Positions 1 through 64,000 are shown, counted from the stretch's first letter. The stretch is DNA of 64,000 nt from an uncultured bacterium (GCA_963843795.1 CAWJLW010000006.1:1922001-1986000), one strand, 5' to 3'. The notes: generated by a model from the sequence alone, not told the origin. Translations and numbers: made by a program.

Positions 1-2085
1 CGCGCCACTAAATGGATTAAAGAAAATCTGCCGCACGCCAAAGTGTCGGGCGGCGTGAGCAACATCTCGTTTTCATTTCGCGGCAACAATCGCGTGCGCG
101 AAGCGATGCACGCGGCGTTTTTGAAACATGGCGTCGATGCCGGTTTGGATATGGGCATCGTCAACGCGGGAATGTTGGAAGTTTACGAAGCCGTCGCGCC
201 CGATTTGCTCGAAGCGGTCGAAGACGTTTTATTGAATCGTCGCGCCGATGCTACTGAACGATTATTGGAAATGGCCGAGCGCGTCAAAGCGGAAAGTTCG
301 GGTGAAGTGGCCGAAGTCAAAACCGAAGCGTGGCGTGAAGAAACGCCCGAAGAACGTTTAAAATATGCTTTGATTAAAGGCATTGATTTATACGTTGAAG
401 CTGACGTTGAAGAAGTGCGCGTGCGTTTTCTGGAAGCGGGCAAAAAGCCGCTGGAAGTGATCGAAGGGCCGCTGATGGACGGCATGAACGTGGTCGGCGA
501 TTTGTTCGGCGCGGGCAAAATGTTTCTGCCGCAAGTCGTGAAATCGGCGCGCGTGATGAAAAAAGCCGTCGCGATTTTGCTACCTTATATGGAAGCCGAA
601 AAGCAGCGCACCGGTGCGCGCGCTCAGGGCAAAGTGCTTCTGGCAACGGTGAAAGGCGATGTGCATGATATTGGCAAAAACATCGTCGGCGTGGTTTTGG
701 GCTGCAACAATTACGAAGTGATTGATCTGGGCGTGATGGTATCTTGCGACAAAATTTTGCAGACCGCGCGCGAAGAAAACGTTGATGTGATTGGGCTTTC
801 GGGCTTGATTACGCCGAGTTTGGATGAAATGCAGCAAGTCGCGCGCGAAATGCAACGACTGGATTTTCAATTACCGCTGCTGATTGGCGGTGCAACAACC
901 TCGCGCATTCATACCGCCGTTAAAATCGCGCCGCATTATGAGCGCCCGATTATTCATGTTCTGGACGCCAGTCGCGCGGTCGGCGTCGTCAGCCAACTTT
1001 TATCGGACGATCAACACGATGAATTTATCGAGCGAATTAGCAACGAACAAGAGCGCGACCGCACGGCGCATTTGAATAAACGCGATAAAAAACCGCTGCT
1101 GTCGATTGAAGAAGCACGCGCGCGCAAAAATCCTATCGAATGGAAAAGCGAAGACATTGCCTCACCACCGTTCACTGGTTTCAAGGTGCTGCAAAACATT
1201 CCCTTAGAAGAATTGCTGCCGTTCATCGACTGGACACCGTTTTTCAACGCTTTTGAATTGAAAGGTTTGTATCCTGAAATTTTCGAGGATGAAACGGTTG
1301 GGGAACACGCCAAGAATTTGTTTGACGATGCACAGCAAGTACTTGCGGGCATCGTGCGCGGCAAACGTCTGCGCGCCAATGCGGTTTACGGTTATTACGC
1401 CGCCAACGCGGTCGGCGATGATGTTGAAATTTACGCGACCGAAGCGCGCGATAAAGCGGCAACGACATTTCATTTTCTGCGCCAGCAAATTGATAAAGCC
1501 GAAGGGCGTTTCGACAACAGCTTGGCCGATTTCATCGCGCCCAAAGAAACTGGTTTACCCGATCATCTGGGCGCTTTTGCGGTTACTGCGGGCATCGGTT
1601 TGGAAGAAATCGTGATGAAATACAAAAGCGCGCACGATGATTACAATGCTTTTATCGCTCAAGCTCTGGCCGACCGTTTGGCCGAAGCCACAGCCGAATG
1701 GCTTCATGCGAAAGTGCGGCGCGAATGGTATGCGCCGAACGAGGAATTGTCGAATCAGGAACTGATTGGTGAGAAATATCGCGGTATTCGTCCGGCTCCG
1801 GGCTATCCGGCGTGCCCGGATCATACCGAAAAAACGCTGCTGTTCGATTTGATGGACGTGCCGCATAAAGCGGGCATCACGCTCACGGAAAGTTACGCGA
1901 TGACACCAGCTTCTTCGGTGTCGGGTTTCTATTTCGCTCATCCGCAAGCGCGATATTTCGCGGTTGGTAAAATCGAGCGCGATCAAATGTTGGATTATGC
2001 CAAGCGCAAAAATTTAGATGCGCGCGAAATTGAGCGGGTGTTGTCGCCGAATTTGAATTACGAGCCGGATGCAATTGTGAAATGA
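1..2085 (+). CDS. metH: B12-dependent methionine synthase (5' truncated by window edge)
   Basis: Frame open from base 1 ([21 protein letters not shown]); cobalamin-binding motif GDVHDIGKN; activation domain [12 protein letters not shown]. Confidence 0.97.
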
Positions 2086-2163
2086 ACTTTTCGACTCGTG
2101 CAAGTACTTGCAATGTGTCCCAATGCGCACCAAGTACTTGCCCAGTCGAGCACACCAATTTCC

Positions 2164-3048
2164 ATGAGCTTAGAATCTTTTTCTTTGCCCTACGTGCGCT
2201 GGGCCGACGTCGCGGTGATGAGTCCGCATTATCTGACGCCAATGCGTCGGCTGTATGATCACGAATTAGTTTATGTGTTGGGCGGCCACGGCACGATCAC
2301 TATCGAGAATCGGAAATATTCGGCTCAGGCCGACCAATTGTATCTGATTATGCCACACGTCCGACACTCGTTCATCGCTGCTATCGACGAAAAAATGCCG
2401 TTACTTGGCGTGCATTTCGATTGGAAATTTTATGACGATGCGATGCCGTTTCCAATTCAATATCCCAGCGATGAACCCGCACGCAACGCGCCTACCTGCC
2501 CGACTTCCACTATTGAAAATTGGGATATAAGTTGCAAACCATTTTTAGATTTGCGCGGAAGGCCGCGCGTTCGGCATTTGCTGGAAGAGCTTGTCGTCGA
2601 GCGCAATCGCAGTGATGACGAAGCGCAGCACATCAGCAGCGCTTTGTTGGCGCTGATACTGACCTGTATCGCGCGCGAAGCACGGCAGTTGCAGCAAATC
2701 GAACAAAATTCGCATTTGGGTGCTGATGCGATTCGGCGCGTCGAGCGCGCGCGCCAAATGTTGGAAAGCGAAGAAATTACCGACGTTGAAACGGTCGCCG
2801 CACAAGTTGGATGGAGCGGCGATCATCTGCGGCGCATGATGCGCGCTGTCCTGCAACAATCGCCCTATCAACTTCAAACCTCAGCGCGTTTGCGACGCGC
2901 GCGCGACCTTTTGCGCGACGAGAACTTGTCAATTGCACACGTTGCCATGCGCTGTGGCTTCGACGACGCTTCGCACTTTTCGCGCGTTTTTAAAAAAGAT
3001 TGCGGACTGACACCGCGTCAATTCCTCACCATGGCGAAGAAGATTTAA
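2164..3048 (+). CDS. AraC-family transcriptional regulator (cupin + HTH)
   Basis: N-terminal cupin (HELVYVLGG); C-terminal AraC signature CGFDDASHFSRVFKKDCGLTPRQF; ATG 2164 preferred because the upstream GTG lies in a palindrome. Confidence 0.9.
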   Translation: MSLESFSLPYVRWADVAVMSPHYLTPMRRLYDHELVYVLGGHGTITIENRKYSAQADQLYLIMPHVRHSFIAAIDEKMPLLGVHFDWKFYDDAMPFPIQYPSDEPARNAPTCPTSTIENWDISCKPFLDLRGRPRVRHLLEELVVERNRSDDEAQHISSALLALILTCIAREARQLQQIEQNSHLGADAIRRVERARQMLESEEITDVETVAAQVGWSGDHLRRMMRAVLQQSPYQLQTSARLRRARDLLRDENLSIAHVAMRCGFDDASHFSRVFKKDCGLTPRQFLTMAKKI

Positions 3049-3191
3049 TCTGCAAAACCAGAGTCGGTAATCTCCTATTTTGCAGATTTATGGCAACTCA
3101 AAATAATTATTGCCGGTTAAAATTCATGGCGAGCGAACAACAATTCCTCTGCAAGTACTTGCAGGAAGTGAAATCAAAGCGAGGAATCACA

Positions 3192-5781: not shown

Positions 5782-5841
5782 AAACGTGCTGCTTTTACAG
5801 GGCAAGTACTTGCCGTAGTGATTTATGAGGAGGAAACGAGC

Positions 5842-9480: not shown

Positions 9481-11106
9481 TCAGTTTTTGCGTCGCGAAG
9501 TGAAACTATCGCGAATTTGTTGCGCGAAAAATCGACCTTTAGAAGGCGCACTCATCAGTTCATCGGCCAGTTTTACTGGCACATCCAGAAATTCCCATGT
9601 CCCGCTGTGCGAGAAGTCGATTTGCAGCGTTTGGGTTTCGGGCAAGTACTTGCACTCGCGCAATGCGGTCGAATCGAGCGGGTCGCGTTCGGGCTTCAGG
9701 AGCGGAAACAGAATCACTTCGCGAATCGAAGTGTTGCCCGTTAAAAGCATCACTAATCGGTCGATTCCAATCCCTAAACCGCCGGTGGGCGGCAGACCAT
9801 ATTGTAAAGCGCGCACATAATCGGCGTCATACGATTGCGCTTCTTCATCGCCCTGCGCTTTGGCCTGAGCCTGAGCGCGAAATCGCTTTTCCTGATCCAA
9901 TGGATCATTTAATTCGGAAAAGGCGTTACCGATTTCTTGTCCGGCGATAAACAGTTCAAAACGATAAGTGAGCTTGGCTTCATCGGTTTTGCGCTTGGCT
10001 AAGGGCGAGACTTCAACCGGGAAATCGAGCACGAAAGTTGGTTCGATCAATGTCGGTTCGATGTGGGTTTCAAAGGCTTCTACCAGATCGTGACCGCCGG
10101 GAATATCCAGCCCAATTTTATCGTGCACCAATTCGCGCATCGTGGCGCGGCGAAAAGGCGCTTTGAGGTCGAACGTGTGTTCGCCAAAAGTGCATTGTGT
10201 CGTACCATTAACACGCATCGCGATATGTTCGAGCATCTTCTCGGTAATGTCCATCATATCGTGATAATCGGCATACGCCTGATACAATTCCATCATCGTG
10301 AATTCGGGATTGTGGCGCGTATCGATGCCTTCATTGCGGAAGTTGCGATTGATTTCGTAAACGCGCTCCAAACCGCCGACGACCAAACGCTTGAGATACA
10401 ATTCGGGCGCGATACGCAGATACAAATCCAAATCCAGCGCGTTGTGATGCGTGACAAAAGGCCGCGCGGTCGCGCCACCAGCGAGCGTTTGCATCATGGG
10501 CGTTTCGACTTCCAAAAAGCCGCGCGCATCGAGAAATTCGCGCATCGCGCGCACGCAAAAACTGCGCTTGCGAAACACTTCAGCGACTTCGGGATTGGAA
10601 ATCAGGTCGGCGTAACGCTGGCGATAGCGCGTTTCCACGTCGCTGAGGCCGTGATATTTTTCCGGCGGTGGCTGAATTGAAGTCGCCAGCAGCGTAAAAT
10701 CGGTAATCGCGACCGAAACTTCGCCGCGCCGCGTTTTGAAAACTTCGCCGGATGCGCCGATAATATCGCCCAATTCAAGCTCAAGAAACTCGGCCATTTT
10801 ATCGGCACCGAGCTTGTCTAGTTGCGCGACAATCTGGATTTTTCCGTCGTTGTCCCACAAATCGGAGAACGCGATTTTGCCCTGCCCGCGCTTACTTTTC
10901 AAGCGACCGGCTAGCTGAACGGTTGCGCCGTCCATCGATTCGAAATTGTTGAGAATTTCGGTCGATAAATGCGAACGCTCGAAGCGCGTTTGCGCGTAAG
11001 GGTCGCGCCCTTCGCTTTGCAGTTTCAGCAAACGCTCGCGGCGCAGCGCCACGATTTCATTTTCGTCTTCAGTGGAATTGGAATTTTGATTGTTCTGGTT
11101 ATTCAT
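9481..11106 (-). CDS. lysS: Lysine--tRNA ligase (class II) with C-terminal KTSC domain
   Basis: OB-fold anticodon domain, [34 protein letters not shown]; ~60-aa tail [10 protein letters not shown]...SAPSKGRFF resembles KTSC. Confidence 0.96.
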
Positions 11107-13822: not shown

Positions 13823-14816
13823 TTATTTCGTCCGTCTCGAACTGACACCAAATGCCCATGGCGCGCCGCACAAGCTCGAAAGCCACACCGTCGCTTGCCA
13901 CAAGAGCGACCACGCCAGCACCAAACCTTTGGGCCAACTCGCGCCTAAGAGCGCCAACGCCGCTCCTTCGCGCACGCCCAAGCCGCCGATTCCTAAGGGA
14001 ATGAGCGAAGAAACCGCGAGAACCGGCGCGAGCCACGAAACCGACAGCGCGCTGAGTTGCAAACCGACAGCGCGCGCCAGCCACAAATTGATGCCGATTT
14101 GAATGAGTTGCACCAGCAGCGAAAGCACGAGCGCCAGCCACACAACCGCGCGCTGTTGCGGCGCTGCGTAGAGACTTAGCGCGTTTTGTAACGAACGCAC
14201 AATGCCGCCGATTTTGGCCAATGGGCCAGATAATTTGGCGTCTGGAATTTCGCTTGTTTAAAATTCGATTCAGGGCAGCGAAAGCTATCAATGCAACAAT
14301 CAACAGCGCGCTAAAAATCAGAATCAAGCGCCACGCTTGCGCGCTTTGAGCGCCGCGCGATGCGCCGTCGAAAACTAAAGCCAGCGCGCCAATCAGCAGC
14401 AAACCCACCATGCCGCTGACCCTGTCCATCAGAACCGAAGCCGCCGCAATCAAACGACTTTGCACCGTTTCGCCCGCTTGAATCACGCGCGCGGCGTCGC
14501 CGCCAATGCCAGTTGGCATCCACAAATTCCAGAACATTCCGACGCCATACCAGCGCACGCACGACCCTAAATCGACGGGCGCACTTTGCGGGTTGCCAAT
14601 CGCGTTGAGCAGCAGTTGCCAGCGCCACGCGCTGAGTATTTGCCCGAGCCAATAAAGCGCAACGCTTCCCGCAAGTACTTGCCACGACACATTTTGTAAA
14701 GCCGCGCCGACGGGAATATCGCGCGCGCCCCGCACCAGCGCCCACACGATGAGCGCGCCCAGCGACAAGCGCGAAAGCCATTGCCACGGCGCGCGGCGTT
14801 TAGGTTCTTTGGTCAT
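13823..14816 (-). CDS. Lysylphosphatidylglycerol synthase TM / UPF0104 flippase-like protein, frameshifted near 14260
   Basis: AWRWQLLL, FWNLWMPTGIGGDAAR in the 5' frame; IPLGIGGLGVREGA in the 3' frame (13823-14221). Confidence 0.8.
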
Positions 14817-14833
14817 GCAAGTACTTGCTGCGC

Positions 14834-16656: not shown

Positions 16657-17439
16657 TTAACTTCCTCCGGCAGCACGCCAGCGAACCGGATTGCGCAAAA
16701 CCGGCAAATCGCCGATTTGGGTTTCCAGAATATCGCCGTCTTTCAAAGCGCCAATGCCAACCGGCGTGCCGGTCATAATCACATCGCCCGCTTCGAGCGT
16801 GATGCACTGGCTGAGGAATGAGATAATTTTCGCAACGCTGAAAATCATGTCGCTCGTGTGGCCGTCCTGACGCACTTCGCCATTGACAATTGAACGGACG
16901 CGCACATTCTGCGGATCGAGATCGGTTTCAATGAACGGGCCAAGCGGCGCGTAAGTGTCCATCGATTTGGCGCGCGCCCACTGCGATTCGGCCTTTTGAA
17001 TCACGCGGTCGCTGATGTCCTGACCGTTGGTGAAACCCAGCACATAATCTAAGGCTTCGGCTTCGGAAACATCGCGGCACTGGCGTCCGATAACGACCGA
17101 AAGTTCGGCTTCATAATCGGTGCGATTGTCAGGAAAAACAATTTCAATCGGCGTTTCATGCGCGATAATCGCCGCGGTCGATTTGAACCACATCAGCGGC
17201 TCGTCAGGCAGCGGCTTGCCGGATTCTTTGGCGTGTTCGACGTAATTCAAACCGATGGCGAACAATTTCGGCGGCACAACCGGCGCAAGTACTTGCAGCG
17301 TTTCCAAGGGCGCCATATCGCCGGTGCGACCGATATCGCCCAGGTTCAAAAACGGGTCCACAATGCTGTAAGCGGTTCCGTTTTCAATTTCAATGTAGCG
17401 CGCCTGCTCGTTCCACAACGCCCGTCCGATCAAAGCCAT
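16657..17439 (-). CDS. Fumarylacetoacetate hydrolase family protein
   Basis: IGLNYVEHAKE, DYEAEL, AKSMDTYAPLGP, GDVIMTGTP. Confidence 0.93.
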   Translation of the reverse strand: MALIGRALWNEQARYIEIENGTAYSIVDPFLNLGDIGRTGDMAPLETLQVLAPVVPPKLFAIGLNYVEHAKESGKPLPDEPLMWFKSTAAIIAHETPIEIVFPDNRTDYEAELSVVIGRQCRDVSEAEALDYVLGFTNGQDISDRVIQKAESQWARAKSMDTYAPLGPFIETDLDPQNVRVRSIVNGEVRQDGHTSDMIFSVAKIISFLSQCITLEAGDVIMTGTPVGIGALKDGDILETQIGDLPVLRNPVRWRAAGGS

Positions 17440-19345: not shown

Positions 19346-19387
19346 AATCACAAAACGCCCTGCAAGTACTTGCAGGGCATGAATATC

Positions 19388-20428: not shown

Positions 20429-20466
20429 TTTTTCTCCTCAATTCAACCCGCAAGTACTTGCAGCCA

Positions 20467-21267
20467 TTACACACTCAGTTCACGCGAGCGTTGTGTAGCC
20501 GCGTCCACTGCGTCCATCACCGCGCCGCGAAAAGCGTGCGATTCCAGCGCGTGCAATCCAGCGATGGTTGTACCACCGGGCGAAGTCACCATATCTTTGA
20601 GCGCACCGGGATGTTTTCCGGTTTCTAAAACCATCTGCGCCGCGCCCAGCACGGTTTGCGCCGCTAATTTCGTCGCCACATCGCGCGCCAAGCCCGCGCG
20701 CACGCCCGCGTCGCTCAAAGCTTCGATGAAAATGTAAACGTAAGCCGGGCCACTGCCCGACAAACCGGTGACGGCATCAAGCGAATTTTCCGCAACGTCG
20801 ACCGCAATTCCCACCGCGTCGAAAATGCGATGCGCATATTCGCGATGTTTCGCTGCCGCATGACGCCCCAAAGCAATCGCCGTTGCCGCGCGATTGACCA
20901 AAGCCGGCGTGTTCGGCATCACGCGCACGACCGGCACATTGTGCGCGAAACAGGCTTCGATTTGCGCGGTTGTCACACCGGCACAAATGGAAATTAGCGT
21001 TTTTTCCGACGTGAGAGCTGCGCGCAATGGTTCCAGGGCACTGGCAAGTACTTGCGGCTTGACCGCGAGCAACATCGCATCGGCATTCCCACAATCATCG
21101 GCGTTTTCCAACGCAGTGATTTTCAATTCCTGCGCCAATTTTTGTAAACGTGCGGTGTCGGGATCAAAAGCAGACAATTGATCGGCGCGGAAAATTTGCG
21201 CTTCGAGCAGACCGCGCATCAAGGCTTCGCCCATCGCGCCCGCGCCGAGAAAAGAAAGAGAATTCAT
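20467..21267 (-). CDS. proC: Pyrroline-5-carboxylate reductase
   Basis: GAGAMG, LAVKPQ, RVMPNTP, GLSGSGPAY, VTSPGGTT. Confidence 0.97.
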   Translation of the reverse strand: MNSLSFLGAGAMGEALMRGLLEAQIFRADQLSAFDPDTARLQKLAQELKITALENADDCGNADAMLLAVKPQVLASALEPLRAALTSEKTLISICAGVTTAQIEACFAHNVPVVRVMPNTPALVNRAATAIALGRHAAAKHREYAHRIFDAVGIAVDVAENSLDAVTGLSGSGPAYVYIFIEALSDAGVRAGLARDVATKLAAQTVLGAAQMVLETGKHPGALKDMVTSPGGTTIAGLHALESHAFRGAVMDAVDAATQRSRELSV

Positions 21268-22247: not shown

Positions 22248-22973
22248 TCAGTCGCCAATTTGATTCGTTTGACCTGCGCGCGCGCCGAACAACGCGCTGC
22301 CGACGCGAATCATGGTCGCGCCTTCTTCAATCGCGATTTCAAAATCATTCGACATTCCCATTGATAGATGCGTGCAAGTACTTGCCGATACAAAGCGCGC
22401 CTGCAAAGCGTCGCGCAATTCGCGCAACTGCCGAAAGTCTCCGCGTTTCAATTCGTTGTTTTCGCGCGGCGGCGGCAAACACATCAAACCACGCACCTGC
22501 AAACAGGGAAGTTCGCAGCAACTTTCGAAAAGAGCGCCTAATTCCTCGGGCGCGCAGCCCGCTTTGGATGATTCGCCGCCAACATTCACTTGCAGCAAAA
22601 CTTTTATTTCGCGCCCTTGAGCAGCGGCTTCGCGTTGTAAAGCGTGCGCGATTTTCGTTCGGTCGACCGAATGCACCCAATCGAAATGGCGCACAACATC
22701 GCGCGCCTTGTTGCTTTGCAAAGCGCCGATGCAATGCCACTGCGCGGCATGTTGACCCAAGATTTCGATTTTTGCAATGCCTTCCTGCACATAATTTTCG
22801 CCGACAGCATTCAAGCCCACCTGCAAGTACTTGCCGAGCATTTGGGCGCCTACAGTTTTGGCGGCGCCAATTAAAAGCACCGAATTCGCCTCGCGTCCGG
22901 CGCGCGCACAGGCAGTTTCAATGCGATTTTGAATGGTGCGAAGATTGGTTAAAATTTCTGTTTCGGTAGCCAC
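22248..22973 (-). CDS. yggS: PLP homeostasis protein YggS
   Basis: GENYVQE, WHCIGALQSNK, LSMGMSNDFEIAIEEGATMIRVGSALFG. Confidence 0.96.
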   Translation of the reverse strand: MATETEILTNLRTIQNRIETACARAGREANSVLLIGAAKTVGAQMLGKYLQVGLNAVGENYVQEGIAKIEILGQHAAQWHCIGALQSNKARDVVRHFDWVHSVDRTKIAHALQREAAAQGREIKVLLQVNVGGESSKAGCAPEELGALFESCCELPCLQVRGLMCLPPPRENNELKRGDFRQLRELRDALQARFVSASTCTHLSMGMSNDFEIAIEEGATMIRVGSALFGARAGQTNQIGD

Positions 22974-23012: not shown

Positions 23013-23981
23013 ATGAGCCAATTTTCCCATCCCGAACCAGCCGATATTCCCGCTCTGCTCGACCTGTGGAACGCGTGTCTGCCCAATTTTCCTCTCAGTG
23101 AGCAATTGTTGCAGCAAAGCATCATCGACGATCCACATTACGAACGCGAAGGTTGTTTCATCGTGCGCGAAAATGAGCACATTATCGGTTGGGTGATGTC
23201 GAAATCGATGCGCAATGCAGGCAGCGAAGTCGGACGCTTTCAAAATCGTGGGGGCATTGGTGCGCTGTGCGTGCATCCGGAAAGGCAACGTCGGGGCATC
23301 GGCACACAATTGATCGAGCAAGCCGAAAACTGGTTGCAGCAAAACGGTTCGCCACTTACGACTTTATATTTTCCGCATCATTTAGTGTGCGGCGTGCCGA
23401 TTGAATGCGAAGCGGCCCTGAAGTTGTTTCGTCAACGCGGCCTCAATCAATGGCACGAAACTTACGATTTGAAACGCGATTTGCGCGACTTCCAAATACC
23501 GCCGCAAGTACTTGCGGCGTTGCGCGAGAATCCGGACGTGGAAATTCGTGCTTTGAAAGAATCCGAAAGCGTGCAATTAATGGAATTTGTCCTCCGCGAA
23601 TTTCCCGGCGCGTGGGATTACTCGACGCGCGATCACTTTCGTCATGGCGGAATGCCGAGCGATTTTATTGTTGCAGTGGAAAAAGGTGTTATTATTGGTT
23701 TTTGTCATACCAACGACTTCCATAGCACGCGTTTGATTTCCAGCACGCACTGGCATCCATTGTTAGGTAAGAATTATGGCGGGTTGGGGCCGATTGGAAT
23801 AGCGAAAGCGGAGCGCAAACGCGGACTGGGCTTAGCTTTGTGCGCAGTTGCGGTCGATGATTTAAAAAAACGCGGTGTGGAATCGATGTGCATTGATTGG
23901 ACTTCGCTTTTAGATTTTTATGGCAAGTTGGGCTTTACGGTGTGGAAGACCTATTTGCAGGGCGAACGTCAAATCGGTTAA
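23013..23981 (+). CDS. Tandem GNAT N-acetyltransferase
   Basis: Two motif-A copies (VHPERQRRGIG, IAKAERKRGLG) and FYGKLGF. Confidence 0.88.
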   Translation: MSQFSHPEPADIPALLDLWNACLPNFPLSEQLLQQSIIDDPHYEREGCFIVRENEHIIGWVMSKSMRNAGSEVGRFQNRGGIGALCVHPERQRRGIGTQLIEQAENWLQQNGSPLTTLYFPHHLVCGVPIECEAALKLFRQRGLNQWHETYDLKRDLRDFQIPPQVLAALRENPDVEIRALKESESVQLMEFVLREFPGAWDYSTRDHFRHGGMPSDFIVAVEKGVIIGFCHTNDFHSTRLISSTHWHPLLGKNYGGLGPIGIAKAERKRGLGLALCAVAVDDLKKRGVESMCIDWTSLLDFYGKLGFTVWKTYLQGERQIG

Positions 23982-27253: not shown

Positions 27254-27301
27254 GTCCGCTTTATTTTACTCAAAGCGCGCTGCAAGTACTTGCAGCGCAT
27301 T

Positions 27302-31964: not shown

Positions 31965-32043
31965 GCGCGACTTTGATGCTTTGAGTGTCTCCAAATGGTG
32001 CTGCAAGTACTTGCAGCACCATTTTCTATTTCCGGAGACAAGT

Positions 32044-35207: not shown

Positions 35208-36503
35208 ATGAATTCCTTACAATCTCCGCGTGGCACTCACGATTTGCTGCCCGATCAGGCCGCGCGCTGGCGCTTCATCGAAAAGAGTTTCCGCACTGTT
35301 TGCGCGCGCTACCACTACGGCGAAATTCGCACGCCGATTTTTGAATCTACCGAACTGTTCGACCGCAGCGCCGGTGCTTCGTCCGACCTGGTTGTCACCA
35401 AGCAGATGTACACTTTCACCGCTCTGGACGGCGAAAGTTATTCGCTGCGTCCCGAAGGCACGGCGGGTGTCGTACGTGCCTACATTCAGCACCATTTAAA
35501 CGAGCGCGGGCCGGTGTGCAAGCTGTATTATCTCAACTCGCATTTTCGCTACGAAGCGCCCCAAGCCGGACGTTATCGCCAGCATCATCAGTGTGGCGTC
35601 GAGATGTTCGGTGCTGATACGCCGGAAAGCGATGTCGAAGTTCTCACGCTCGCGCACGATTTTTTTGAGGCGCTGGGTTTAGAAACCGTTGTGAAAATCA
35701 ATTCCCTCGGCACGCCAGAAAGTCGCGCGGGTTACGTCGAAGAATTGCGCAAGTACTTGCAACCGCACAGCGCGCACCTATCACCCGATTCACAGAAGCG
35801 TTTGGAGATCAACCCGCTGCGCGTTTTCGATTCCAAAGACGCACGCGATGCGGAAATCGTCAAGGGCGCGCCGCGTTTGCTGGATTATCTCAAACCTAAT
35901 GACATCGAATCGATGGCGCATTTTGCGCGCGTCTTACAACTGCTGGACGAACTCGAAATCGCTTATCAAATCGACGCCGATTTGGTGCGCGGATTGGATT
36001 ATTACACGCGCACGGCGTGGGAGTGGACGACGCCGAACTTGGGCGTTAGCATTGGCGGCGGCGGACGTTACAACGGTCTGGTCGAACAGTTGGGCGGGCC
36101 GCCGACGCCTGGCATCGGTTTCGGTATCGGCTTGGAACGTTTGATTTTAGCCTTGGGCGACGAATTGCCAGACGCACGTGGCCTGACCGGATTTCTGGTC
36201 ATGCTAGGCGACGACGCACGCGCAGCGGGGCCAAAAATCCTGCACCGTTTGCGTCAAAGTGGTGTGCGCGCCGACTGCGATTACGCGGGCCGCTCGATGA
36301 AAGCGCAAATGCGCGAAGCCAACCGCCAAAACGCCCAATTCGCACTGATTATGGGCGAAGACGAACTGGCACAAAACGCTCTGGCCGTGAAAGATATGGC
36401 GACCGGCACCCAGCAAGTGCTTGCAATGGACGAAGCGATCGCGCATTTGCAAAATGTCGATGCCGATAATGCAGTGGCGCGTTACTTCGGTGAAGCCAGC
36501 TAA
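35208..36503 (+). CDS. hisS: Histidine--tRNA ligase
   Basis: PRGTHD, LRPEGTAG, FRYEAPQAGRYRQ, LVRGLDYY, GGGRYNGL. Confidence 0.97.
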   Translation: MNSLQSPRGTHDLLPDQAARWRFIEKSFRTVCARYHYGEIRTPIFESTELFDRSAGASSDLVVTKQMYTFTALDGESYSLRPEGTAGVVRAYIQHHLNERGPVCKLYYLNSHFRYEAPQAGRYRQHHQCGVEMFGADTPESDVEVLTLAHDFFEALGLETVVKINSLGTPESRAGYVEELRKYLQPHSAHLSPDSQKRLEINPLRVFDSKDARDAEIVKGAPRLLDYLKPNDIESMAHFARVLQLLDELEIAYQIDADLVRGLDYYTRTAWEWTTPNLGVSIGGGGRYNGLVEQLGGPPTPGIGFGIGLERLILALGDELPDARGLTGFLVMLGDDARAAGPKILHRLRQSGVRADCDYAGRSMKAQMREANRQNAQFALIMGEDELAQNALAVKDMATGTQQVLAMDEAIAHLQNVDADNAVARYFGEAS

Positions 36504-38985: not shown

Positions 38986-38994
38986 GTTCTGCAA

Positions 38995-39036: not shown

Positions 39037-39122
39037 AATGTCGATAAATCATCTCTGCAAGTACTTGCTAGGTGTAAAGTCTTCAGCAAGTACTTGCAGA
39101 GTGTTTCACAAAGGAAAAAGTC

Positions 39123-40620: not shown

Positions 40621-40698
40621 TTTCTTAAAGTTCTTTCTCTATCTCTGCAAGTACTTGCAGAGCGCTTTTCCAACATCATCGTAAGCGAGGTGATAACG

Positions 40699-43889: not shown

Positions 43890-44276
43890 AATTGTGCCGC
43901 AAGTACTTGCAAGGAAGTCGGAAAGCGAAATGCGTTGCCATCGTAATGATGGCAGCGCATTTCATTTTGGACTGTTTCAAATTTACTAAACGCTGCAATT
44001 TGTAGCCTTCTCAACACATGAGTCGCTTTCGCGTTTCTTGTTGCTAAATATAGCGTTTCAGGGCGCAATCTGGCATTTAAATCGCCATGAATTTTAATGA
44101 GCAATGTAAGTCTTAAAGTTTCAACATTGTCACACAAACGTGATTTTTCGGCGTGCGATTTGCCATTATGAAAGGCACCAAAAAAGAAAAGTTTTCTGTC
44201 ATTTTGGAAGGTTCATTTCTCTTTGGCTTATCTCTTATTTCATGGGCTTTATTAAGTCTGCAAAAGGAAAATCATC

Positions 44277-48117: not shown

Positions 48118-48150
48118 AAATAGCGCTACAAGTACTTGCAGCGCTATTTT
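48118..48150. terminator. Hairpin with motif variant between convergent genes
   Basis: AAATAGCGCTACAAGT|ACTTGCAGCGCTATTT. Confidence 0.7.
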
Positions 48151-48710: not shown

Positions 48711-48796
48711 GATAACTCATCCCGGCAAGTACTTGCAGCACGTTTCTCGCACATCGAATGCACGATTTTGCATTGATGCGTGTTAAAATCCTCCTC

Positions 48797-50866: not shown

Positions 50867-50910
50867 AAACGCGTAAAGCGCCCTGCAAGTACTTGCAGCC
50901 TCTTTTTCTT

Positions 50911-53853
50911 ATGCCGATTTCCTCTTTGCCAAGCTCATCGAAACGTTTGAAAGCGCCGCGTTTGCGGTTGGGATTGTCGCGCGAGGGCGAAACTAAATCG
51001 CGCGCATCGTGGGGCATGACGATTGGGCTGGCCTCAGCGATTTTCACGATTTTGCTACTGCGCTATTCGCTGATGGGCCGCGAATTCGAATATGATTCGC
51101 TCGATATCTGGTTCAATCTGCGTCAAGGACACACTTCCAATGCGGTCGCGGTCTTAGAAATCGACGATGAGACTTTCGCGCGCTGGAACGGGCGCGCTTT
51201 TGATGCACCCGCAATGGCCCGTGTGCTGCAAATATTGAAAGACAATCGCGCTCGCACCGTCGTTTTCGCCCTTACCGGACTGTGCGCGCAAAATCCCGAA
51301 AGCAAATCATCCAGCGCTTCGCCCTTTTCCAGCACCACAAATCGAATTGACACTCTGCGCAACGAAGCGCGCGATACCGATTTTGTGCAATGGCCGTTGT
51401 TGATGAGCACAGCCAACAGCGCTCACGCCCAATCTGAAAAAACGCCCGATTTACCCGAAAACTGGAGTGTGCCACGCAGCCAATGGCCCGATATCGAAGC
51501 GCCTGTAACCACCTTCGTCGAAACTCCACCAAGTCGTTGGTTAGGTCCGCAAAACGGCGCGGGCCACACTTCATTTGCAACTGATTCCGATAATCGACCG
51601 CGCGCTTCTTTTCCGGCTTTGGCTTTCCAAAATCGCCTTTATCCCGCGCTATCCTTGAGCGCAGCAGCGAAAATGCACAATATAAAGTGGACGAAAACCA
51701 TAGAAGACAGTGAACCTTGGCTTCTCGATTTTTCGCCGCTGGATTTACCGCAAAGTTTCACTCATCGCAAAGATTTAATGCGCGGTTTTCCAACCCTGGG
51801 CATAGCGCAAGTACTTGCACAGCCCACGTTGGCGCGCGGACTGGAAAACAAGTGCGTCGTCATCGGCATGAGCGCGCGCGGTGTGAGCGCACTTTACACC
51901 GCACCCGACCGCCGGCGCATCAACGAAGCGCAATTGCAGGCCATCGCCATTGATAATTTGCTTTCACAATCGACGACCGGCGTTGCACCCGAAGGTTGGA
52001 TTTGGATTCTCACTATGTTGCCGTGCATGATTGTGGGTGGCTTTGTCGCTTCGCGCCCGCCAATGTGGGGCGCAATTATCACATTACTTTCTTTGTTGAC
52101 GATTTTCGTTTTGTCAGCGGGTTTGTTTGCGCAAAATTTGTGGCTCGACATCACAATTCCGTGGCTCGCAGTCGGGTTGACTTATCTCACCAGCGTTATC
52201 GGACGCGCGCGGCGCGATACGCGCGAGGCCACGCGCATCGGTTCAACCGTGAGCGCGCTGGCGCAGGCCAGCAATTTGATCGCGGCACAAAACCAGTCGC
52301 AGGAGCTTTTAGAGCGCGTTTTAGAATGGGCACGCGAAATTTTGCACGCCGAATCGGCCAGCGTTTTGTTGTTCGACAAAAAGCGCGAAAGGCTCGATTT
52401 CGCTGCCGCCCAAGGCCCGATAGCCGACCAGTTGAAGCCGTTTTCGCTCGCTCCAGGCATCGGAATCGCCGGTTGGGTGGCGCAAAACGGACAAGCGGTT
52501 TATACCAACGATGCGCGCAACGATGCGCGTTTTCAATCTGATTTTGACGGCGCGACCGGCTTTGTCACACGAGCGATTGTTTGCGTTCCACTTCGCGCGC
52601 GCGATGAAATTCTGGGCGTCATCGAAGTCGTCAACCGTTTGAACGACGAGCCGTTCACCAGCGACGATGTGGAAATATTGAGCGCGGTCGCCAACCAGAG
52701 CGCTATCGCACTGGAAAACGCGCGCTTATACGAACTGTTGAATTTGCGCGTCGCGGTATCGGAAGAATCGCTGGAAAATACCAACTTGCGTTTGGAAACC
52801 GAAAAGCATCTTTTGCAAACCGTATTGCAAGCGATGACCAACGGAATTGTGGTTATCGACAAGTCGAATCATGTGCAATTAATTAATCGCGCTGCTTCGC
52901 GCGTGTTGCCCGAACTCGACGATGCCATTGGCCAACCATTGGGTCGTGTATTGCCCGAATTTCCCGACGGATTCACGCGGCGTGAAGGCGACCGACGGCG
53001 CGGACTTTCGGCCCAGCTCAAGCGCGGCGATGTCGATGCGCCGCGCACGATTGAAGCGCGCTCATCGCATTTGCCGTTCGCGGCCAACAGCAAAGCAAGC
53101 GGACAAATCATCATCTTTGAAGACGTGACGCAGCAGCGCAACATCGAGCAGGCCAAAAGTGATTTCGTCTCGTTCGTTGCCCATGAAATGCGTTCGCCGC
53201 TCACCACAATCGCCGGTTTTTCTTCGATGCTGCGCTCAAACGAAGCGCGTGAGGCCACGCCCAATGCCCAGCGCAGCCGTTTTTTAGGGCTAATTCACGA
53301 CGAAAGCGAACGCTTGAAACGCTTGATTAATTCGATGCTGGACGTGGCGCGCATCGAAGCCGGACGCGACATCGAAATTCAGATCGACACCTTTGAATTC
53401 GCGCCCTTGGCGATGCAGACCATCGAATCACAGCGAGTTTATTCGAGCCGCCATCAAATCGTGGGCGATTGGCCGCCCGACTTGCCGCCAATCCGCGCCG
53501 ACCGCGATAAAGTCACGCAAATTCTCATCAATTTGCTGTCGAACGCCTTGAAATATTCGCCCGGTGGGCGAGTGCAAGTACTTGCCACGCTCCAAGACGA
53601 TTTTCTCGAAGTGCGCGTGCAGGACGAAGGGCCTGGCATCGAGCCAGATCAACAACTGCGCTTATTTGAACGCTTCGGACGTTTGTCGAATCCGGTCGGC
53701 AGCGGCGAGCGCGCCAAGCCTTCGGGCACCGGCTTGGGCTTGTTTCTCACTAAACATCTGGTTGAATTGCAAGGCGGAACGATTCGTGTCGAAAGCGAAA
53801 TCGACAAAGGCAGCGCTTTTATTTTCACGCTTCCCATAGCCCAGGAGAATTGA
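50911..53853 (+). CDS. Sensor histidine kinase (CHASE2-3TM-GAF-PAS-HisKA-HATPase)
   Basis: LEIDDET CHASE2-like region; GAF (GIAGWVA); VAHEMRSPL; NLLSNALKY; DEGPGI; GTGLGL. Confidence 0.9.
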   Translation: MPISSLPSSSKRLKAPRLRLGLSREGETKSRASWGMTIGLASAIFTILLLRYSLMGREFEYDSLDIWFNLRQGHTSNAVAVLEIDDETFARWNGRAFDAPAMARVLQILKDNRARTVVFALTGLCAQNPESKSSSASPFSSTTNRIDTLRNEARDTDFVQWPLLMSTANSAHAQSEKTPDLPENWSVPRSQWPDIEAPVTTFVETPPSRWLGPQNGAGHTSFATDSDNRPRASFPALAFQNRLYPALSLSAAAKMHNIKWTKTIEDSEPWLLDFSPLDLPQSFTHRKDLMRGFPTLGIAQVLAQPTLARGLENKCVVIGMSARGVSALYTAPDRRRINEAQLQAIAIDNLLSQSTTGVAPEGWIWILTMLPCMIVGGFVASRPPMWGAIITLLSLLTIFVLSAGLFAQNLWLDITIPWLAVGLTYLTSVIGRARRDTREATRIGSTVSALAQASNLIAAQNQSQELLERVLEWAREILHAESASVLLFDKKRERLDFAAAQGPIADQLKPFSLAPGIGIAGWVAQNGQAVYTNDARNDARFQSDFDGATGFVTRAIVCVPLRARDEILGVIEVVNRLNDEPFTSDDVEILSAVANQSAIALENARLYELLNLRVAVSEESLENTNLRLETEKHLLQTVLQAMTNGIVVIDKSNHVQLINRAASRVLPELDDAIGQPLGRVLPEFPDGFTRREGDRRRGLSAQLKRGDVDAPRTIEARSSHLPFAANSKASGQIIIFEDVTQQRNIEQAKSDFVSFVAHEMRSPLTTIAGFSSMLRSNEAREATPNAQRSRFLGLIHDESERLKRLINSMLDVARIEAGRDIEIQIDTFEFAPLAMQTIESQRVYSSRHQIVGDWPPDLPPIRADRDKVTQILINLLSNALKYSPGGRVQVLATLQDDFLEVRVQDEGPGIEPDQQLRLFERFGRLSNPVGSGERAKPSGTGLGLFLTKHLVELQGGTIRVESEIDKGSAFIFTLPIAQEN

Positions 53854-55763: not shown

Positions 55764-55797
55764 AAAATGGCTCTGCAAGTACTTGCAGAGCCATTTT
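55764..55797. repeat. 34-bp perfect palindrome centred on the motif
   Basis: AAAATGGCTCTGCAAGT|ACTTGCAGAGCCATTTT. Confidence 0.95.
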
Positions 55798-57009: not shown

Positions 57010-57091
57010 AAAATACCCTTGCAAGTACTTGCGCTGTGGTTTAAAATGAAATGTCGCTCATCGTGCACATTTTCGAAGGTGAGCAACAAAT

Positions 57092-58832: not shown

Positions 58833-58910
58833 AAAATTGCGCGTGGCAAGTTCATATGCAAGTACTTGCGCAAGAACTTGCCACGTATAATTGAACAAGG
58901 CGACAAAGGA

Positions 58911-60385: not shown

Positions 60386-60511
60386 CTTCTACCTATCCAA
60401 TCAAAATCAACCGCCAAGAGCGTGAAGTATTTTCCCGAATTCTCTCTGCAAGTACTTGCAAGGAAACTTTTCAAAATGCACGTTGCGCCTTTTGCGGTAA
60501 ATTATGAGTTT

Positions 60512-62104: not shown

Positions 62105-62215
62105 GATAAAAAGTTTGACTGCTCCAAATTTTGAAATACTATGAGTTGTTATTGAATTTATTGAATCGCCCGCAGTTTAGCCAATTCTGACGCTGCGTTT
62201 AGCCCTTAAATCATC

Positions 62216-64000
62216 ATGCAAGTACTTGCACCGCGTTTTTCACTCTGCTTTCTGTTACTGCTCTGCACTTTCGCGCGCGCCCAAAACGGGGCGGATAATT
62301 GGCAAAAATTTCTTGCGCCACCAGAGCTATCGCCAACCAACTTTCTTTTCACGGTTCAATCCAATGGCGATCAGGCCGAAGGGCAACTTCTGCTGGGGCA
62401 AGATGGCTCGTGGCAGGTGCAAGTACTTGCTGGGCCAAATCCAGCGCGCGCAATTATCGGCAATGGCAAAGAAACGCGCGTTGTGGATAACGCGACCAAA
62501 CGCGTGCAACGCTTCGATTTCGATGCGCTGAATGAATGGTTTCGGGGCTTCGATGTAGACAACGGCGGGCCGGCGAACGTTTGGCTACGGCCTTCACCGC
62601 AACTGGTCGCGCAAAATTACGATGTAAAAATGAGCAGCGTTGGCGGGCAAACCGTGCTCGATTTGACCGCTAATGCGCGTGGCAGGTACTTGCAGCGCGA
62701 GGGCGTTCTGGTCGGCGGTGCCGGCGGCGGACGTTATTACGCGGCGCGCAAGATTCCGGCTTGGAACCGACCTTATCGCATTCAATTGAAATTTTCGGCT
62801 CCGCAAGTACTTGCCATGCGCACCGATTTCGCGCCCGATAATCGGGTGTTGCAAATGCTGGATTACAGCTACGAAAACGCGCGTCCAAAAACCATCACAG
62901 TGCGCGATGCCGATAAACGTGTGCTGGCGACGTGGAGTTATCAGTGGTCAACACCTGATCCAACCGCACCCCCCGGTTTTGTCCTGCCCGATGCGCCAAT
63001 TATCGAAGAAAACACCCCAGGCGAAAATTTCGCCAATCAGGCGTCGCAGGTGTGGAATCAGGGCGTGATTCAAACGCGACGGGAAGATTGGCGCTCGGCG
63101 TTGGCTTCGTTCGCACGCGCCGGACAACTCGCGCCCGCAGCGTTAGCTGCGCCCAGCGCGCAGTTCGATGCCGCGCTGCAAGTGCGAGATACCGCAGCAA
63201 CTTTGGATGCCTTGGCGCACATCGCGAAAATCGCGGGCGACAGCGATTATGAAACCATTTCGCGTCGCTTGCGCTGGTACAGCTTGCAACGCGATTCAAC
63301 CGCGGCGCGCGCCGATTTAAATGCGCTGGCTGCCGATAAAACGCCACGTTCGCAATGGCTGCGCGCGACGACGTGGCGCACTTTGGGCGACCAAGCCGCT
63401 GCCGTTCAAGCGGCCCGCGAGACTTTGGATAATCCGCAAACGCCAGCTAGTCTCGCTTTCGATGCCGCCGCATTTTTGATTGAAATCGCGCCCGCGACTT
63501 TGGCCGCCGAAATCGAAAAAAATACAACCAACGCTCCCGCGCATCAAATTGCCGCACGTTTACTGCGCAACCAAGTCACACCCTTGAGCGCCGCACAACT
63601 CCAAGAAAATGTCACACATGTACGCGCGCTGGTCTTGGTGGCGCGCACGTTGGAAGCACGCGGAGAGGACACGACAACGGTCTGGCAAAAAATCGTGGAC
63701 ACGGCGACAACTCCGCTGCAACAAATCGCGCAACGCCAATTGATGGCGCTGGCCGCACAGCGCGGTGATGCCCCCGCAAGTCTCACGATTTACACCGATT
63801 TGGCTGGGAATTTGAGCGACAACGATGTGGCGAGTTTGCAAAATTACTTGTTCAACGCGTGGGATAAATCAGGCAACATCGAAAAGCTGCGCGTTTCGAT
63901 GCAGAATCGCGCCATCAGCGTGCGCGCCCCTAGTTCCGACGCGCGTTTGTGGCTGGCTTATCAGCAGCAATACGCAAGCGCGGAGGAAGTTGCCAACAGC
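62216..64000 (+). CDS. Secreted protein with TPR-like helical repeats (3' truncated; absent from ORF track)
   Basis: Manual translation from ATG 62216: MQVLAPRFSLCFLLLLCTFARA-QNG..., WNQGVIQTRREDWRSALASFARAGQLAP; no stop seen before the window end. Confidence 0.75.
   Translation, partial: MQVLAPRFSLCFLLLLCTFARAQNGADNWQKFLAPPELSPTNFLFTVQSNGDQAEGQLLLGQDGSWQVQVLAGPNPARAIIGNGKETRVVDNATKRVQRFDFDALNEWFRGFDVDNGGPANVWLRPSPQLVAQNYDVKMSSVGGQTVLDLTANARGRYLQREGVLVGGAGGGRYYAARKIPAWNRPYRIQLKFSAPQVLAMRTDFAPDNRVLQMLDYSYENARPKTITVRDADKRVLATWSYQWSTPDPTAPPGFVLPDAPIIEENTPGENFANQASQVWNQGVIQTRREDWRSALASFARAGQLAPAALAAPSAQFDAALQVRDTAATLDALAHIAKIAGDSDYETISRRLRWYSLQRDSTAARADLNALAADKTPRSQWLRATTWRTLGDQAAAVQAARETLDNPQTPASLAFDAAAFLIEIAPATLAAEIEKNTTNAPAHQIAARLLRNQVTPLSAAQLQENVTHVRALVLVARTLEARGEDTTTVWQKIVDTATTPLQQIAQRQLMALAAQRGDAPASLTIYTDLAGNLSDNDVASLQNYLFNAWDKSGNIEKLRVSMQNRAISVRAPSSDARLWLAYQQQYASAEEVANS

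Follow-up and report, generated by a model that had tools for sequence, protein, structure and literature searches.

A single 12-letter palindrome, GCAAGTACTTGC, occurs in 2567 perfect copies in the 4.3 Mb of genome G000, against ~0.25 expected from composition, and inside genes it takes precedence over codon usage and skews the proteome. On the best reading, GCAAGTACTTGC is likely a self tag of the DUS/USS or HIP1 kind that is kept by drive at the DNA level; in the more specific form towards which we tentatively lean, it may be a species-specific tag for self-recognition, with a putative symmetric protein of DNA uptake or recombination reading it on double-stranded DNA. Fragments bearing GCAAGTACTTGC would be preferentially taken up or recombined, and through this preference new copies would spread and old ones would be kept where protein constraint permits, as in the drive of DUS and USS. 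The word enters genes through base substitutions that run counter to codon usage, and is written into spacers at hairpin apices.

Abundance and placement of the palindrome

The palindrome word ranks first among the 8-, 10- and 12-mers of G000. Copies recur approximately once per 1.6 kb of chromosome, on both strands and far above chance, an abundance of the DUS/USS type; single-mismatch variants total 506 and fall most often at positions 4/9 (59 and 68), next at 1/12 (33 and 37). Spacing is more regular than random (CV of 0.82), with counts per 20 kb averaging 13.2 and a standard deviation of 3.1, under the Poisson value of 3.6. With genes beyond the window called by a purpose-made crude caller, 1663 copies (65%) are intergenic and 809 (31.5%) lie within predicted genes, in the frames QVLA (538), KYL (147) and ASTC (124); intergenic density is 13 times coding density. 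Amino acid changes were forced in 652 genes. Density drops as coding constraint rises, with 0.30 per kb at one end of the coding-score quartiles and 0.16 at the other. Copies are contained in 47% of divergent, promoter-side spacers, and 30 tandem pairs of copies abut or overlap.

Gene ends are a favored location: 58% of intergenic copies sit 0–40 nt beyond a stop codon, and ~24% form the centre of a perfect palindrome with at least 10 further paired bases per side and A-/T-run flanks. The core is contained in 315 of the 445 strict terminator-like hairpins of G000; 1301 genes possess a copy within 100 nt of the stop, and 315 of those copies lie in such a hairpin. The description as an intrinsic, bidirectional terminator fits a subset of copies and is inapplicable to the 809 within genes. 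A paired stem accepts any sequence that is self-complementary, which is why the palindrome is found at terminator apices, where sites cost nothing. The earlier note had understated this side of the distribution, namely the 65% intergenic share, the 13-fold density and the core in 315 of 445 hairpins.

In the window, the whole 64-kb stretch of DNA analysed, the core CAAGTACTTG is present 37 times against 0.02 expected from shuffles; 35 of these are full GCAAGTACTTGC, and one-off variants at 2130 and 48128 make up the remainder. The earlier note held that the palindrome is written into genes in all three frames, and all 13 of its listed sites were recovered in the frames it gave, in Pfam-supported ORFs, the large ORF at 62419 being without a Pfam match. 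The QVLA frame is read in metH (1335..1346, DAQQVLAGI), an LPG_synthase_TM ORF on the minus strand (14671..14682), the minus-strand FAA hydrolase (17285..17296) and proC (21044..21055) genes, a GNAT gene (23504..23515; PSKVLEAL in the orthologue), a CHASE2-GAF histidine kinase (51807..51818), a histidine kinase (53574..53585) and, twice, the large ORF (62419..62430 and 62803..62814). The KYL frame is read as KYLP in lysS (9642..9653, gene on the minus strand) and as KYLQ in minus-strand yggS (22823..22834; the orthologue is without the motif, with no indel) and in hisS (35749..35760; RAYLE in the sister species, no indel). The ASTC frame is read in yggS, again on the minus strand (22374..22385), where the sister species carries its own dialect, CAAAGTACTTTG, at the matching position. 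A fourteenth in-gene copy, beyond those listed, lies over a predicted start codon (62218..62229; ATG CAA GTA CTT GC, MQVLA). Within the window, dnaK and clpB are indeed free of copies, as had been remarked.

Two further copies border genes: one adjoins the ATG of the LPG_synthase ORF (14817..14828), 6 nt after the next gene's end, and one covers the predicted TTG start of an epimerase gene (58858..58869), 26 nt after glycogen synthase. Other intergenic copies follow gene ends closely: 15 nt after the metH stop (2100..2111; the one-off variant CCAAGTACTTGC is at 2130..2141), 21 nt after the sulfatase stop (5802..5813), 10 nt after the clpB stop (43899..43910), 12 nt after a gene end with tRNA-His downstream (57021..57032) and, each followed by a T-run, 27 nt after a dnaJ-like gene (40647..40658) and 19 nt after an ABC-2 gene (50885..50896). 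A pair 29 nt apart is situated after dnaK (39057..39068) and before hsp20 (39086..39097). Copies also occupy the spacers between an AraC regulator and PhyH (3151..3162), the OpuA permease and ABC ATPase genes (19362..19373, with a short extended stem), yggT and proC (20450..20461), and DUF6572 and serA (60448..60459), as well as the divergent spacers of Band7/hisS (34800..34811) and GNAT/ABC-2 membrane protein (48725..48736). The remaining copies are embedded in larger palindromes: a hairpin apex (gcgct/agcgc) past a DUF1559 gene (27282..27293), the centre of a long perfect palindrome (gagatacgggcct...aggcccgtatctc; 29570..29581), the apex of a terminator-shaped hairpin 39 nt after ruvB (32003..32014), the apex of a bidirectional terminator (aaaaagcgcgct...agcgcgctttttt) with convergent genes on either side (33687..33698), the apex of a terminator-shaped perfect palindrome (aaaaatggctct...agagccatttt; 55775..55786) and, for the variant ACAAGTACTTGC, a hairpin apex (aaatagcgct...agcgctatttt) between convergent genes (48128..48139).

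Codon and peptide imprint inside genes

Genome-wide, 549 of the 614 QVLA peptides are spelled CAAGTACTTGCN, against 2.4 expected; the motif likewise encodes 125 of 145 ASTC peptides (0.3 expected) and 194 of 317 KYL peptides (13 expected). The peptides themselves are in excess of amino acid composition by 16- to 36-fold (QVLA, 614 against 38.8; ASTC, 145 against 4.0; KYLQ, 108 against 5.1). The earlier note had judged GTA and CTT atypical by eye and had asked for the codon and over-representation comparisons. Its impression was right, with GTA at 7.7% of Val and CTT at 8.8% of Leu codons (GTG and GTC, 68%; TTG and CTG, 66%), and in both comparisons the motif departs from background. The result stands with the 2093 high-scoring genes alone, and also for the 429 copies at least 150 nt inside such genes. 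As for HIP and DUS/USS words, GCAAGTACTTGC is found in coding DNA irrespective of frame.

The flanks of these 429 interior copies favor cT..Ag and A(-10)/T(+10) whatever the frame, with no left–right covariation (z between -2.7 and +1.2), while the flanks of intergenic copies covary strongly (z of 6.7 to 22). A preference on each side without covariation indicates that inside genes the word is kept, not a fold; together with the codon override, this supports the claim that the motif goes beyond a terminator hairpin and is imposed on the DNA itself. The flank preference inside genes is similar to the terminator consensus, and conversion from spacer copies could also yield such flanks.

The orthologue comparison that the earlier note proposed was carried out against the sister species G001 for the 23 in-gene sites with an orthologue at 50% identity or higher. 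At 18 of these, the alignment is ungapped, often opposite a similar xVLx peptide; gaps lie nearby at the other five, one of them of exactly 12 nt. In-gene copies therefore arose by substitution and not by insertion, replacing similar sequence with no change in length (RAYLE to RKYLQ in hisS). Across 96 orthologue pairs, 6 of 24 G000 cores fall at the identical nucleotide to G001 cores, against ~0.014 expected, and three of the six bear each species' own full flanks. These shared positions need not be ancestral, as both species could have gained copies in parallel at the few xVLx sites that permit one.

Dialects, loss of the core and enzyme searches

The host of GCAAGTACTTGC is a bacterium of the family Abditibacteriaceae. 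The sister species has 0 copies of GCAAGTACTTGC, and its own dialect, CAAAGTACTTTG, occurs 1231 times. In another genus, four species carry (T)CGAGTACTCG(A), with G015 and G019 using TCGAGTACTCGA and G012 and G009 using CGAGTACTCG. The dialects surround a constant core (GCA-AGTACT-TGC, CAA-AGTACT-TTG, TCG-AGTACT-CGA), as DUS dialects do, and every one leaves its own peptide imprint on the proteome of its species. In the other 21 of 27 Abditibacteriaceae genomes, AGTACT is depleted or nearly emptied (1–285 copies): the 13 genomes of genus g2 retain 1–126 copies against 305–1419 of a control word, one copy is left in 6.0 Mb of G005 and one in 4.1 Mb of G262, and 40.5 kb of G005 contain no GTAC where 38 would be expected. 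Since most of the family has all but lost the word, something in the family acts on it; this loss points to restriction-type biology around the word, of which the uptake model needs none.

Motif-poor DNA in G000 comprises contig C3, whose 40.6 kb hold 3 copies, and two islands of 26 kb with a single copy apiece; these regions encode transposases, a type I restriction–modification system and contractile-injection genes. Like DUS and USS, GCAAGTACTTGC is almost lacking in mobile DNA. The species dialects, this depletion and the even spacing bear out the likeness to HIP1 and DUS that the earlier note had drawn. Neither a transposase nor a cytosine methylase nor a ScaI-type enzyme was found to account for the motif. 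A C5 cytosine methyltransferase was found in neither G000 nor G001, and a Dam-class enzyme in none of G000, G001, G009 and G006. The only PF01555 methyltransferase of G000 bears a DPPY motif, and the nearest solved relative of the enzyme is M.RsrI; its orthologues are 74% identical in G001, 65% in the depleted G006 and 57.5% in the purged G005. The match to Y1 transposases is weak and partial (PF01797, E 4e-7), and tag-free relatives have more.

Origin of the palindrome and known systems

The sharp 12-mer, its even spread, the coding copies, the dialects, the shared positions and the absence from mobile DNA support reading GCAAGTACTTGC as a self-recognition tag. The competence genes ComEC and DprA, found family-wide, are present in G000 (the G001 genome, 63% complete, yielded no DprA); both also occur in tag-free relatives, and so do not discriminate between tag-bearing and tag-free genomes. 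Two more observations weigh against the tag: the 13-fold higher intergenic density, and a search that returned no candidate reader or receptor. The drive would be biased uptake or recombination, and the reader a dimer whose specificity would have diverged between species. To our knowledge, none of the proven uptake sequences (DUS, USS) is palindromic. A literature search found no transformation data for Abditibacteriaceae and no paper describing an AGTACT-centred tag.

A HIP-type origin without DNA uptake, in which methylation-linked repair or restriction on the AGTACT core, by an orphan methyltransferase or a restriction–modification relic, is coupled to biased mismatch correction, is possible though doubtful. 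GCAAGTACTTGC is palindromic around a classical type II site (AGTACT is the ScaI and GTAC the RsaI site), AGTACT has almost vanished from most of the family, and G000 has a lone PF01555 methyltransferase, conserved in its sister, that may be a cognate enzyme; however, that enzyme is also conserved in the depleted and purged genomes, and 12 to 16 specified bases exceed the usual methyltransferase site. Known repair biases shift word counts few-fold, against a 10,000-fold excess here. Elhai assigns every HIP a cognate methyltransferase and puts forward mismatch repair that depends on methylation (PMC4390886); with no C5 or Dam-class enzyme in the genomes searched, the G-5mC repair model is left without its enzyme. 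The same paper gives one-off HIP variants as biased to the outermost bases (PMC4390886), whereas positions 4/9 lead here. We consider it unlikely that GCAAGTACTTGC instead serves as the docking site for an abundant DNA-binding protein that organises the chromosome or regulates genes, with sites kept by selection for compaction, segregation or global regulation and no transmission bias. A perfect palindrome of 12–16 bp would suit a homodimeric DNA-binding protein, and the even spacing, the half-site flank preferences without covariation in genes and the copies in 47% of divergent spacers agree with one; yet no known organiser requires ~2,600 exact sites or amino acid changes in 652 genes, selection per single site would be weak, and absence from mobile islands and fast turnover of dialects better fit drive.

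Highly improbable is a terminator-hairpin family or a self-copying, REP/MITE-like mobile palindrome with accidental insertions in genes. The 65% intergenic share, the concentration just beyond stop codons, the hairpins and long palindromes centred on the core and the tandem pairs are what such an element would leave, but 18 of 23 in-gene sites show no length change, a strict hairpin serves only 315 of the 1301 genes with a near-stop copy, the 809 in-gene copies are beyond any terminator role, the Y1 transposase match is poor, with tag-free relatives richer, and outer stems vary from copy to copy, so no common element body is being copied. REP elements sit after genes, and RAYT transposases go with REP/BIME; a REP/RAYT system was rejected on the 31.5% of copies in genes, the variable outer stems and the weak partial PF01797 match. 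Rickettsia palindromic elements insert in frame and occur inside ORFs; insertion of this RPE type was rejected on the 18 of 23 ungapped sites. Both groups are dispersed palindromes, as is GCAAGTACTTGC, whose in-gene copies are instead 12-base substitutions with no shared body and no convincing RAYT. The near-absence of AGTACT and GTAC in most relatives is reminiscent of the rarity of CTAG in E. coli (site avoidance, very-short-patch repair); restriction-site avoidance accounts for loss but leaves unexplained how sister lineages gained one extended form 10,000-fold.

With HIP1 (GCGATCGC) and the alternate HIPs of cyanobacteria, GCAAGTACTTGC shares hyper-abundance of a palindrome in coding DNA, lineage variants, a core that resembles a type II methylation or restriction site and, for HIP1, a debated function (PMC4390886; PMC13756078); HIP1 is now itself proposed as an uptake signal (PMC13756078). 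Unlike HIP1, which has 8 bases and is GC-rich, the word spans 12 to 16 bases at 50% G+C, is 13 times denser between genes than within them, has dialects that differ within one genus, and resides in a host that is not a cyanobacterium and has no C5 methylase and no identified cognate methyltransferase. With DUS (PMC3630211) and the USS of Pasteurellaceae (PMC2817400), it shares a 10–12 nt word at ~1 per 1–2 kb, occurrence in genes in all frames with a proteome imprint, placement in terminators, species dialects around a constant core and recently acquired genes without the word. Unlike them, it is a perfect palindrome in another phylum, its peptides are in 16- to 36-fold excess as against approximately 2-fold, and its core word is purged in sister clades of the tag bearers, which is not known for DUS or USS; uptake bias is established for those words, with ComP as receptor in Neisseria, whereas for GCAAGTACTTGC both bias and receptor are putative. 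About one third of N. meningitidis DUS copies lie in ORFs (34.5%, against 31.5% for GCAAGTACTTGC; PMC2817400), and the DUS of Neisseriaceae occur as dialects (PMC3630211), the same pattern as in the GCAAGTACTTGC dialects.

The palindromic word inside genes

The palindrome described in the earlier note is GCAAGTACTTGC; the window contains 37 copies of its 10-base core, against 0.02 in shuffles. The genome under study (G000; 4.30 Mb in 11 contigs, 53.6% G+C, the window sitting in contig C6) holds 2706 10-base cores and 2567 full 12-mers, where composition predicts ~0.25 copies; the outermost G and C are present in 97% of the cores. The motif is the top 8-, 10- and 12-mer of this genome, no rival palindrome comes near it in count, and all 36 single-mismatch variants of the 12-mer total 506, mostly transitions. 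A weaker outer extension surrounds it, with the consensus ...AAA-n-cgcgCT-GCAAGTACTTGC-AGcgcg-n-TTT.... Outside the motif, AGTACT is not depleted (535 vs 348 expected), and GTAC is slightly under-represented, at 0.64 of expectation, as are other 4-base palindromes. More than three copies of the 12-mer were found in 0 of 400 other genomes sampled across the phylum. Chance, an assembly artefact and an adapter are out as sources of the motif, because the copies keep reading frames and align to orthologues.

All 13 in-gene sites listed by the earlier note fall in Pfam-supported ORFs, in the frames it had assigned, and dnaK and clpB indeed carry zero copies; a fourteenth copy in the window falls on a predicted start codon. 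Genome-wide, genes were called with our own two-pass gene caller (3397 genes, 86% coding). By its calls, spacers contain 1663 copies, at 2.83 per kb, and genes 809, at 0.218 per kb; another 95 span a gene boundary. The in-gene copies read as the peptides QVLA (538), KYL (147) and ASTC (124), and their density drops from 0.30 to 0.16 per kb over quartiles of coding score.

That these peptides are spelled against the codon habits of the genome had been an impression by eye, to be checked by comparing peptide spelling with codon usage. Run genome-wide, this comparison returned motif-spelled QVLA in 549 of 614 occurrences where 2.4 were expected, ASTC in 125 of 145 (0.3 expected) and KYL in 194 of 317 (13 expected). 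The QVLA copies use the rare codons GTA and CTT, which make up 7.7% of valine and 8.8% of leucine codons, respectively, in G000. The peptides are themselves over-represented relative to composition (QVLA 16-fold, ASTC 36-fold, KYLQ 21-fold); reversed or permuted forms of the three are not. The codon and peptide result stands in a subset of 2093 high-scoring genes. Its outcome is decisive for imposition of the motif at the DNA level.

The sole other species of the same genus, g1, is G001 (63% complete, ~70–76% nucleotide identity to G000 in genes), in which the G000 12-mer has zero copies. Within 274 kb of G001, 23 G000 in-gene sites have an orthologue of at least 50% identity. The orthologue alignment, likewise proposed as a check, was gap-free at 18 of the 23 sites; gaps lie nearby at five, one of them exactly 12 nt. 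Amino acids were altered to accommodate the motif, as in hisS, where RAYLE in G001 corresponds to RKYLQ in G000, and the G001 residues at motif sites are often similar already (KVLE, AVLA, QPLS). The gap-free sites and these similar residues show that near-matches were converted in place, with amino acids changed to fit, and that in-gene copies arose by substitution, not insertion.

The motif also occurs on or beside predicted start codons. At window 62216–62229, ATG-CAAGTACTTGC gives the N-terminus MQVLA, and at 14817–14831, on the minus strand, the motif immediately precedes the ATG of an LPG_synthase ORF. This LPG_synthase_TM gene (13248–14816, minus strand) looks frameshifted, with profile positions 4–194 in the 522-residue ORF and 204–297 in a second frame at 13823–14221; either the gene is a pseudogene or the assembly is in error here. 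The lysyl-tRNA synthetase at 9481–11106 (minus strand) has a KTSC domain at its C-terminus.

Hairpins in spacers and spread along the chromosome

The two compartments hold the motif in different forms. For the interior of genes we used 429 copies at least 150 nt inside high-scoring genes. These retain the flank preference in all three frames (cT before, Ag after, A-rich near −10 and T-rich near +10), and covariation between left and right flanks is absent (z between −2.7 and +1.2); in spacer copies the covariation is strong, with z of 6.7–22. The motif is kept as a word in genes and as a hairpin in spacers.

About 24% of spacer copies form the centre of a perfect palindrome with at least 10 extra paired bases per side, laid out as AAAA-[variable GC stem]-motif-[complement]-TTTT. 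A stop codon lies within 40 nt of 58% of spacer copies. Density is highest in convergent spacers, at 4.46 per kb, and 47% of divergent spacers carry a copy. A strict terminator-like hairpin is found at most 100 nt from the stop in 445 of 2660 well-scored genes, and the core is present in 315 of these; the 12-mer itself lies at most 100 nt from the stop in 1301 genes, so most gene-end copies are outside strict terminators. Thirty tandem pairs of the abutting or overlapping class occur genome-wide at hairpin apices, e.g. GCGCT-GCAAGTACTTGC-GCAAGTACTTGC-AGCGC, with spacings of 10 (two-base overlap, n = 4), 12 (abutting, n = 16) and 13 (one base apart, n = 10); the overall palindrome is preserved in all 30.

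Rfam detected one tRNA only in the window, a tRNA-His at 57093–57169 that ARAGORN also supports. An ARAGORN call of tRNA-Ser(aga) at 39458–39540, within an hsp20 ORF and lacking Rfam support, is probably a false positive. Over window 31000–40999, contigs from two DNA sequencing runs were short and fragmentary, and they yielded no information about motif polymorphism or termination.

Along the chromosome, 12-mer counts per 20 kb are under-dispersed (mean 13.2, standard deviation 3.1, Poisson 3.6). Three regions depart from this by being motif-poor: two of 26 kb, each with a single copy (C6:56–82 kb and C6:517–543 kb), and contig C3, whose 40.6 kb contain 3 copies. The genes of these islands include transposases of many families, a type I restriction-modification system accompanied by a Schlafen/AlbA_2 protein, and a contractile-injection cluster resembling a phage tail (sheath, tube, baseplate, Pvc16, AAA ATPase) with an ISL3 transposase.

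Dialects and loss of the core word across the family

Related genomes carry differently flanked versions, or dialects, of the AGTACT-centred word. The dialect of G000 is ctGCAAGTACTTGCag (2567 12-mers, 2965 AAGTACTT cores) and that of G001 is tCAAAGTACTTTGa (1231 12-mers, 2725 AAGTACTT cores in 3.1 Mb). Within genus g6, aTCGAGTACTCGAt accounts for 30 of the 37 AGTACT sites sampled in G015 and 27 of the 28 sampled in G019, and (t)CGAGTACTCG(a) accounts for 44 of 116 in G012 and 7 of 14 in G009. Each dialect leaves its own imprint on the proteome, measured per 100,000 residues of long ORFs: QVLA 62, KYLQ 23 and ASTC 32 in G000 and 0–5 elsewhere; KVL 79, KYF 47 and QSTL 50 in G001; and RVL up to 136, EYS up to 107 and SSTR up to 110 in g6.

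The 96 G000/G001 orthologue pairs compared span 31,515 aligned residues and contain 24 cores in G000 and 56 in G001; six coincide at the same nucleotide vs ~0.014 expected. At three of the six, e.g. in yggS (window 22374), each species has its own full flanks. Either the coinciding cores are ancestral and were later retuned to the dialect of each species, or both species gained them in parallel where the same positions were permissive.

AGTACT counts were taken for each of the 31 genomes of the class and set against those of a control, the reversed word TCATGA. The six tag-rich genomes (G000, G001, G012, G015, G019, G009) have 2813–4733 AGTACT and 236–1045 TCATGA. The corresponding ranges are 1–126 and 305–1419 in the 13 genomes of genus g2, 1–15 and 654–1172 in the four of g5, 166–285 and 587–1320 in G006, G017, G004 and G003, and 441–1094 and 936–1228 in the other two families of the class; G025, from the second family of the order, has 25 and 920. 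AGTACT is nearly absent from most Abditibacteriaceae, e.g. G005 (1 in 6.0 Mb), G262 (1 in 4.1 Mb), G022, G008 and G011. Sampled stretches of some of these genomes are almost without GTAC or CTAG: 40.5 kb of G005 had no GTAC (38 expected) and no CTAG, and G007 had 5 GTAC vs 83 expected. The loss of AGTACT in relatives amounts to an extreme purge of the word.

A ClpB tree of 18 genomes, from which G001, G015 and G019 were left out for want of a full ClpB, unites G000, g3 and g6 in one clade with moderate support (82/94) and places the purged g2 and g5 outside. From this tree and the family counts, the tag therefore originated within a family in which the core word is otherwise removed. Either G003, G006 and G017 later lost the tag, or it was gained on more than one occasion.

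On contigs C59 and C63 of G017, an AGTACT-poor genome (175 copies), the G001-type dialect CAAAGTACTTTG occurs about every 2 kb, the 12-mer totalling 18 in the genome. This may reflect contamination of the bin, DNA transferred from an organism like G001, or a tag in decay.

Candidate machinery and comparison with known words

G000 has one PF01555 N6/N4 methyltransferase gene, at C6:2517383–2518069, with a DPPY motif and M.RsrI as closest solved relative; the enzyme is 74% identical in G001, 65% in the depleted G006 and 57.5% in the purged G005. Three ORFs beside it, without Pfam match, had no homologue at any sampled relative locus. PF00145 C5 methyltransferases had no match in G000 or G001, and the PF02086 Dam class none in G000, G001, G009 or G006. 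PF02384 N6 methyltransferases gave scattered matches, the best in a motif-free island, with no tag-linked pattern. The ScaI-type endonuclease family PF09569 had no match in the 31 genomes, and control genomes were equally silent. A REP/RAYT origin was set aside: in G000 the PF01797 Y1 transposase profile matches only weakly and in part, and relatives that lack the tag have more matches. Of the competence genes, ComEC (PF03772) is present in G000 and in five of five genomes tested, and DprA (PF02481) in G000 and all tested genomes but the 63%-complete G001. These family searches yielded no candidate for a reader, a protein recognising the tag. The Pfam content of the window, which helps to assign the organism to Abditibacteriaceae, includes sulfatases, SepF and DUF1559 prepilin-like proteins; three of the latter, at 8292–9338, 11167–11829 and 27302–27943, have prepilin-type N-terminal methylation motifs, and their sole interest is that the known DUS receptor is a minor pilin.

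We tentatively favour the reading that the motif is a self tag of a DNA-exchange route, possible if short of probable. In its favour are the species dialects, the sites that two species share, the even spacing of copies, their absence from mobile DNA, and a share of copies in ORFs that resembles the figure for the Neisseria uptake sequence (34.5% in PMC2817400); moreover, even HIP1, a palindrome, is currently proposed to be an uptake signal (PMC13756078). An origin of the word linked to methylation or restriction draws on the purge of the same hexamer in relatives, and we hold it doubtful. The motif as the site of a chromosome-organiser protein fits the facts more poorly and is quite unlikely; a mobile or terminator-only element, also a poorer fit, is very improbable.

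A broader scheme, which we consider unlikely, would have AGTACT contested family-wide. One restriction-type reader system would have purged the word almost completely in the majority of genera, leaving as little as 1 copy in 6 Mb, and, in g1 and part of g6, turned into a self-tag system writing the 12-bp extended form about 3,000–4,700 times with species-specific flanks. Tag-rich DNA would be self at home and cut in purged relatives, a gene-flow barrier that would drive speciation.

We found no description of the tag in the literature, and none with any of the 12-mers or the 10-mer CGAGTACTCG; matches to CAAGTACTTG and AAGTACTT were, by title, unrelated eukaryotic studies. No work joining "Armatimonadota" with "palindrome" was found, and among the matches listed for Abditibacterium, -ota or -aceae, titles indicated community surveys or unrelated studies.

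Tag-rich and purged genomes occur within one genus (G009 and G012 vs G006), which makes the reader gene findable by comparative genomics; finding it could settle whether such words originate in uptake bias, repair bias or a restriction link. In practice, the motif inflates certain peptides, distinguishes native from foreign DNA in metagenome bins and marks the majority of the recognisable terminators.

To our knowledge, Neisseriaceae and Pasteurellaceae are the only groups with established genome-wide "own-DNA" words, and HIP1 of cyanobacteria is still unexplained. The Abditibacteriaceae tag would add an independent third case, from a phylum that has hardly been studied, and its features are unusually clean. 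The palindrome is long and perfect, the proteome is distorted 16- to 36-fold, dialects vary among species within a genus, two species have sites that were retuned or regained at the same positions, and sister lineages have erased the core word. The earlier note had likened the motif to HIP1 and DUS as a word maintained at the DNA level wherever protein constraint allows, and the facts bear this out in fitting a process that acts on DNA and is limited by protein constraint; in this the motif is like DUS/USS and HIP1.
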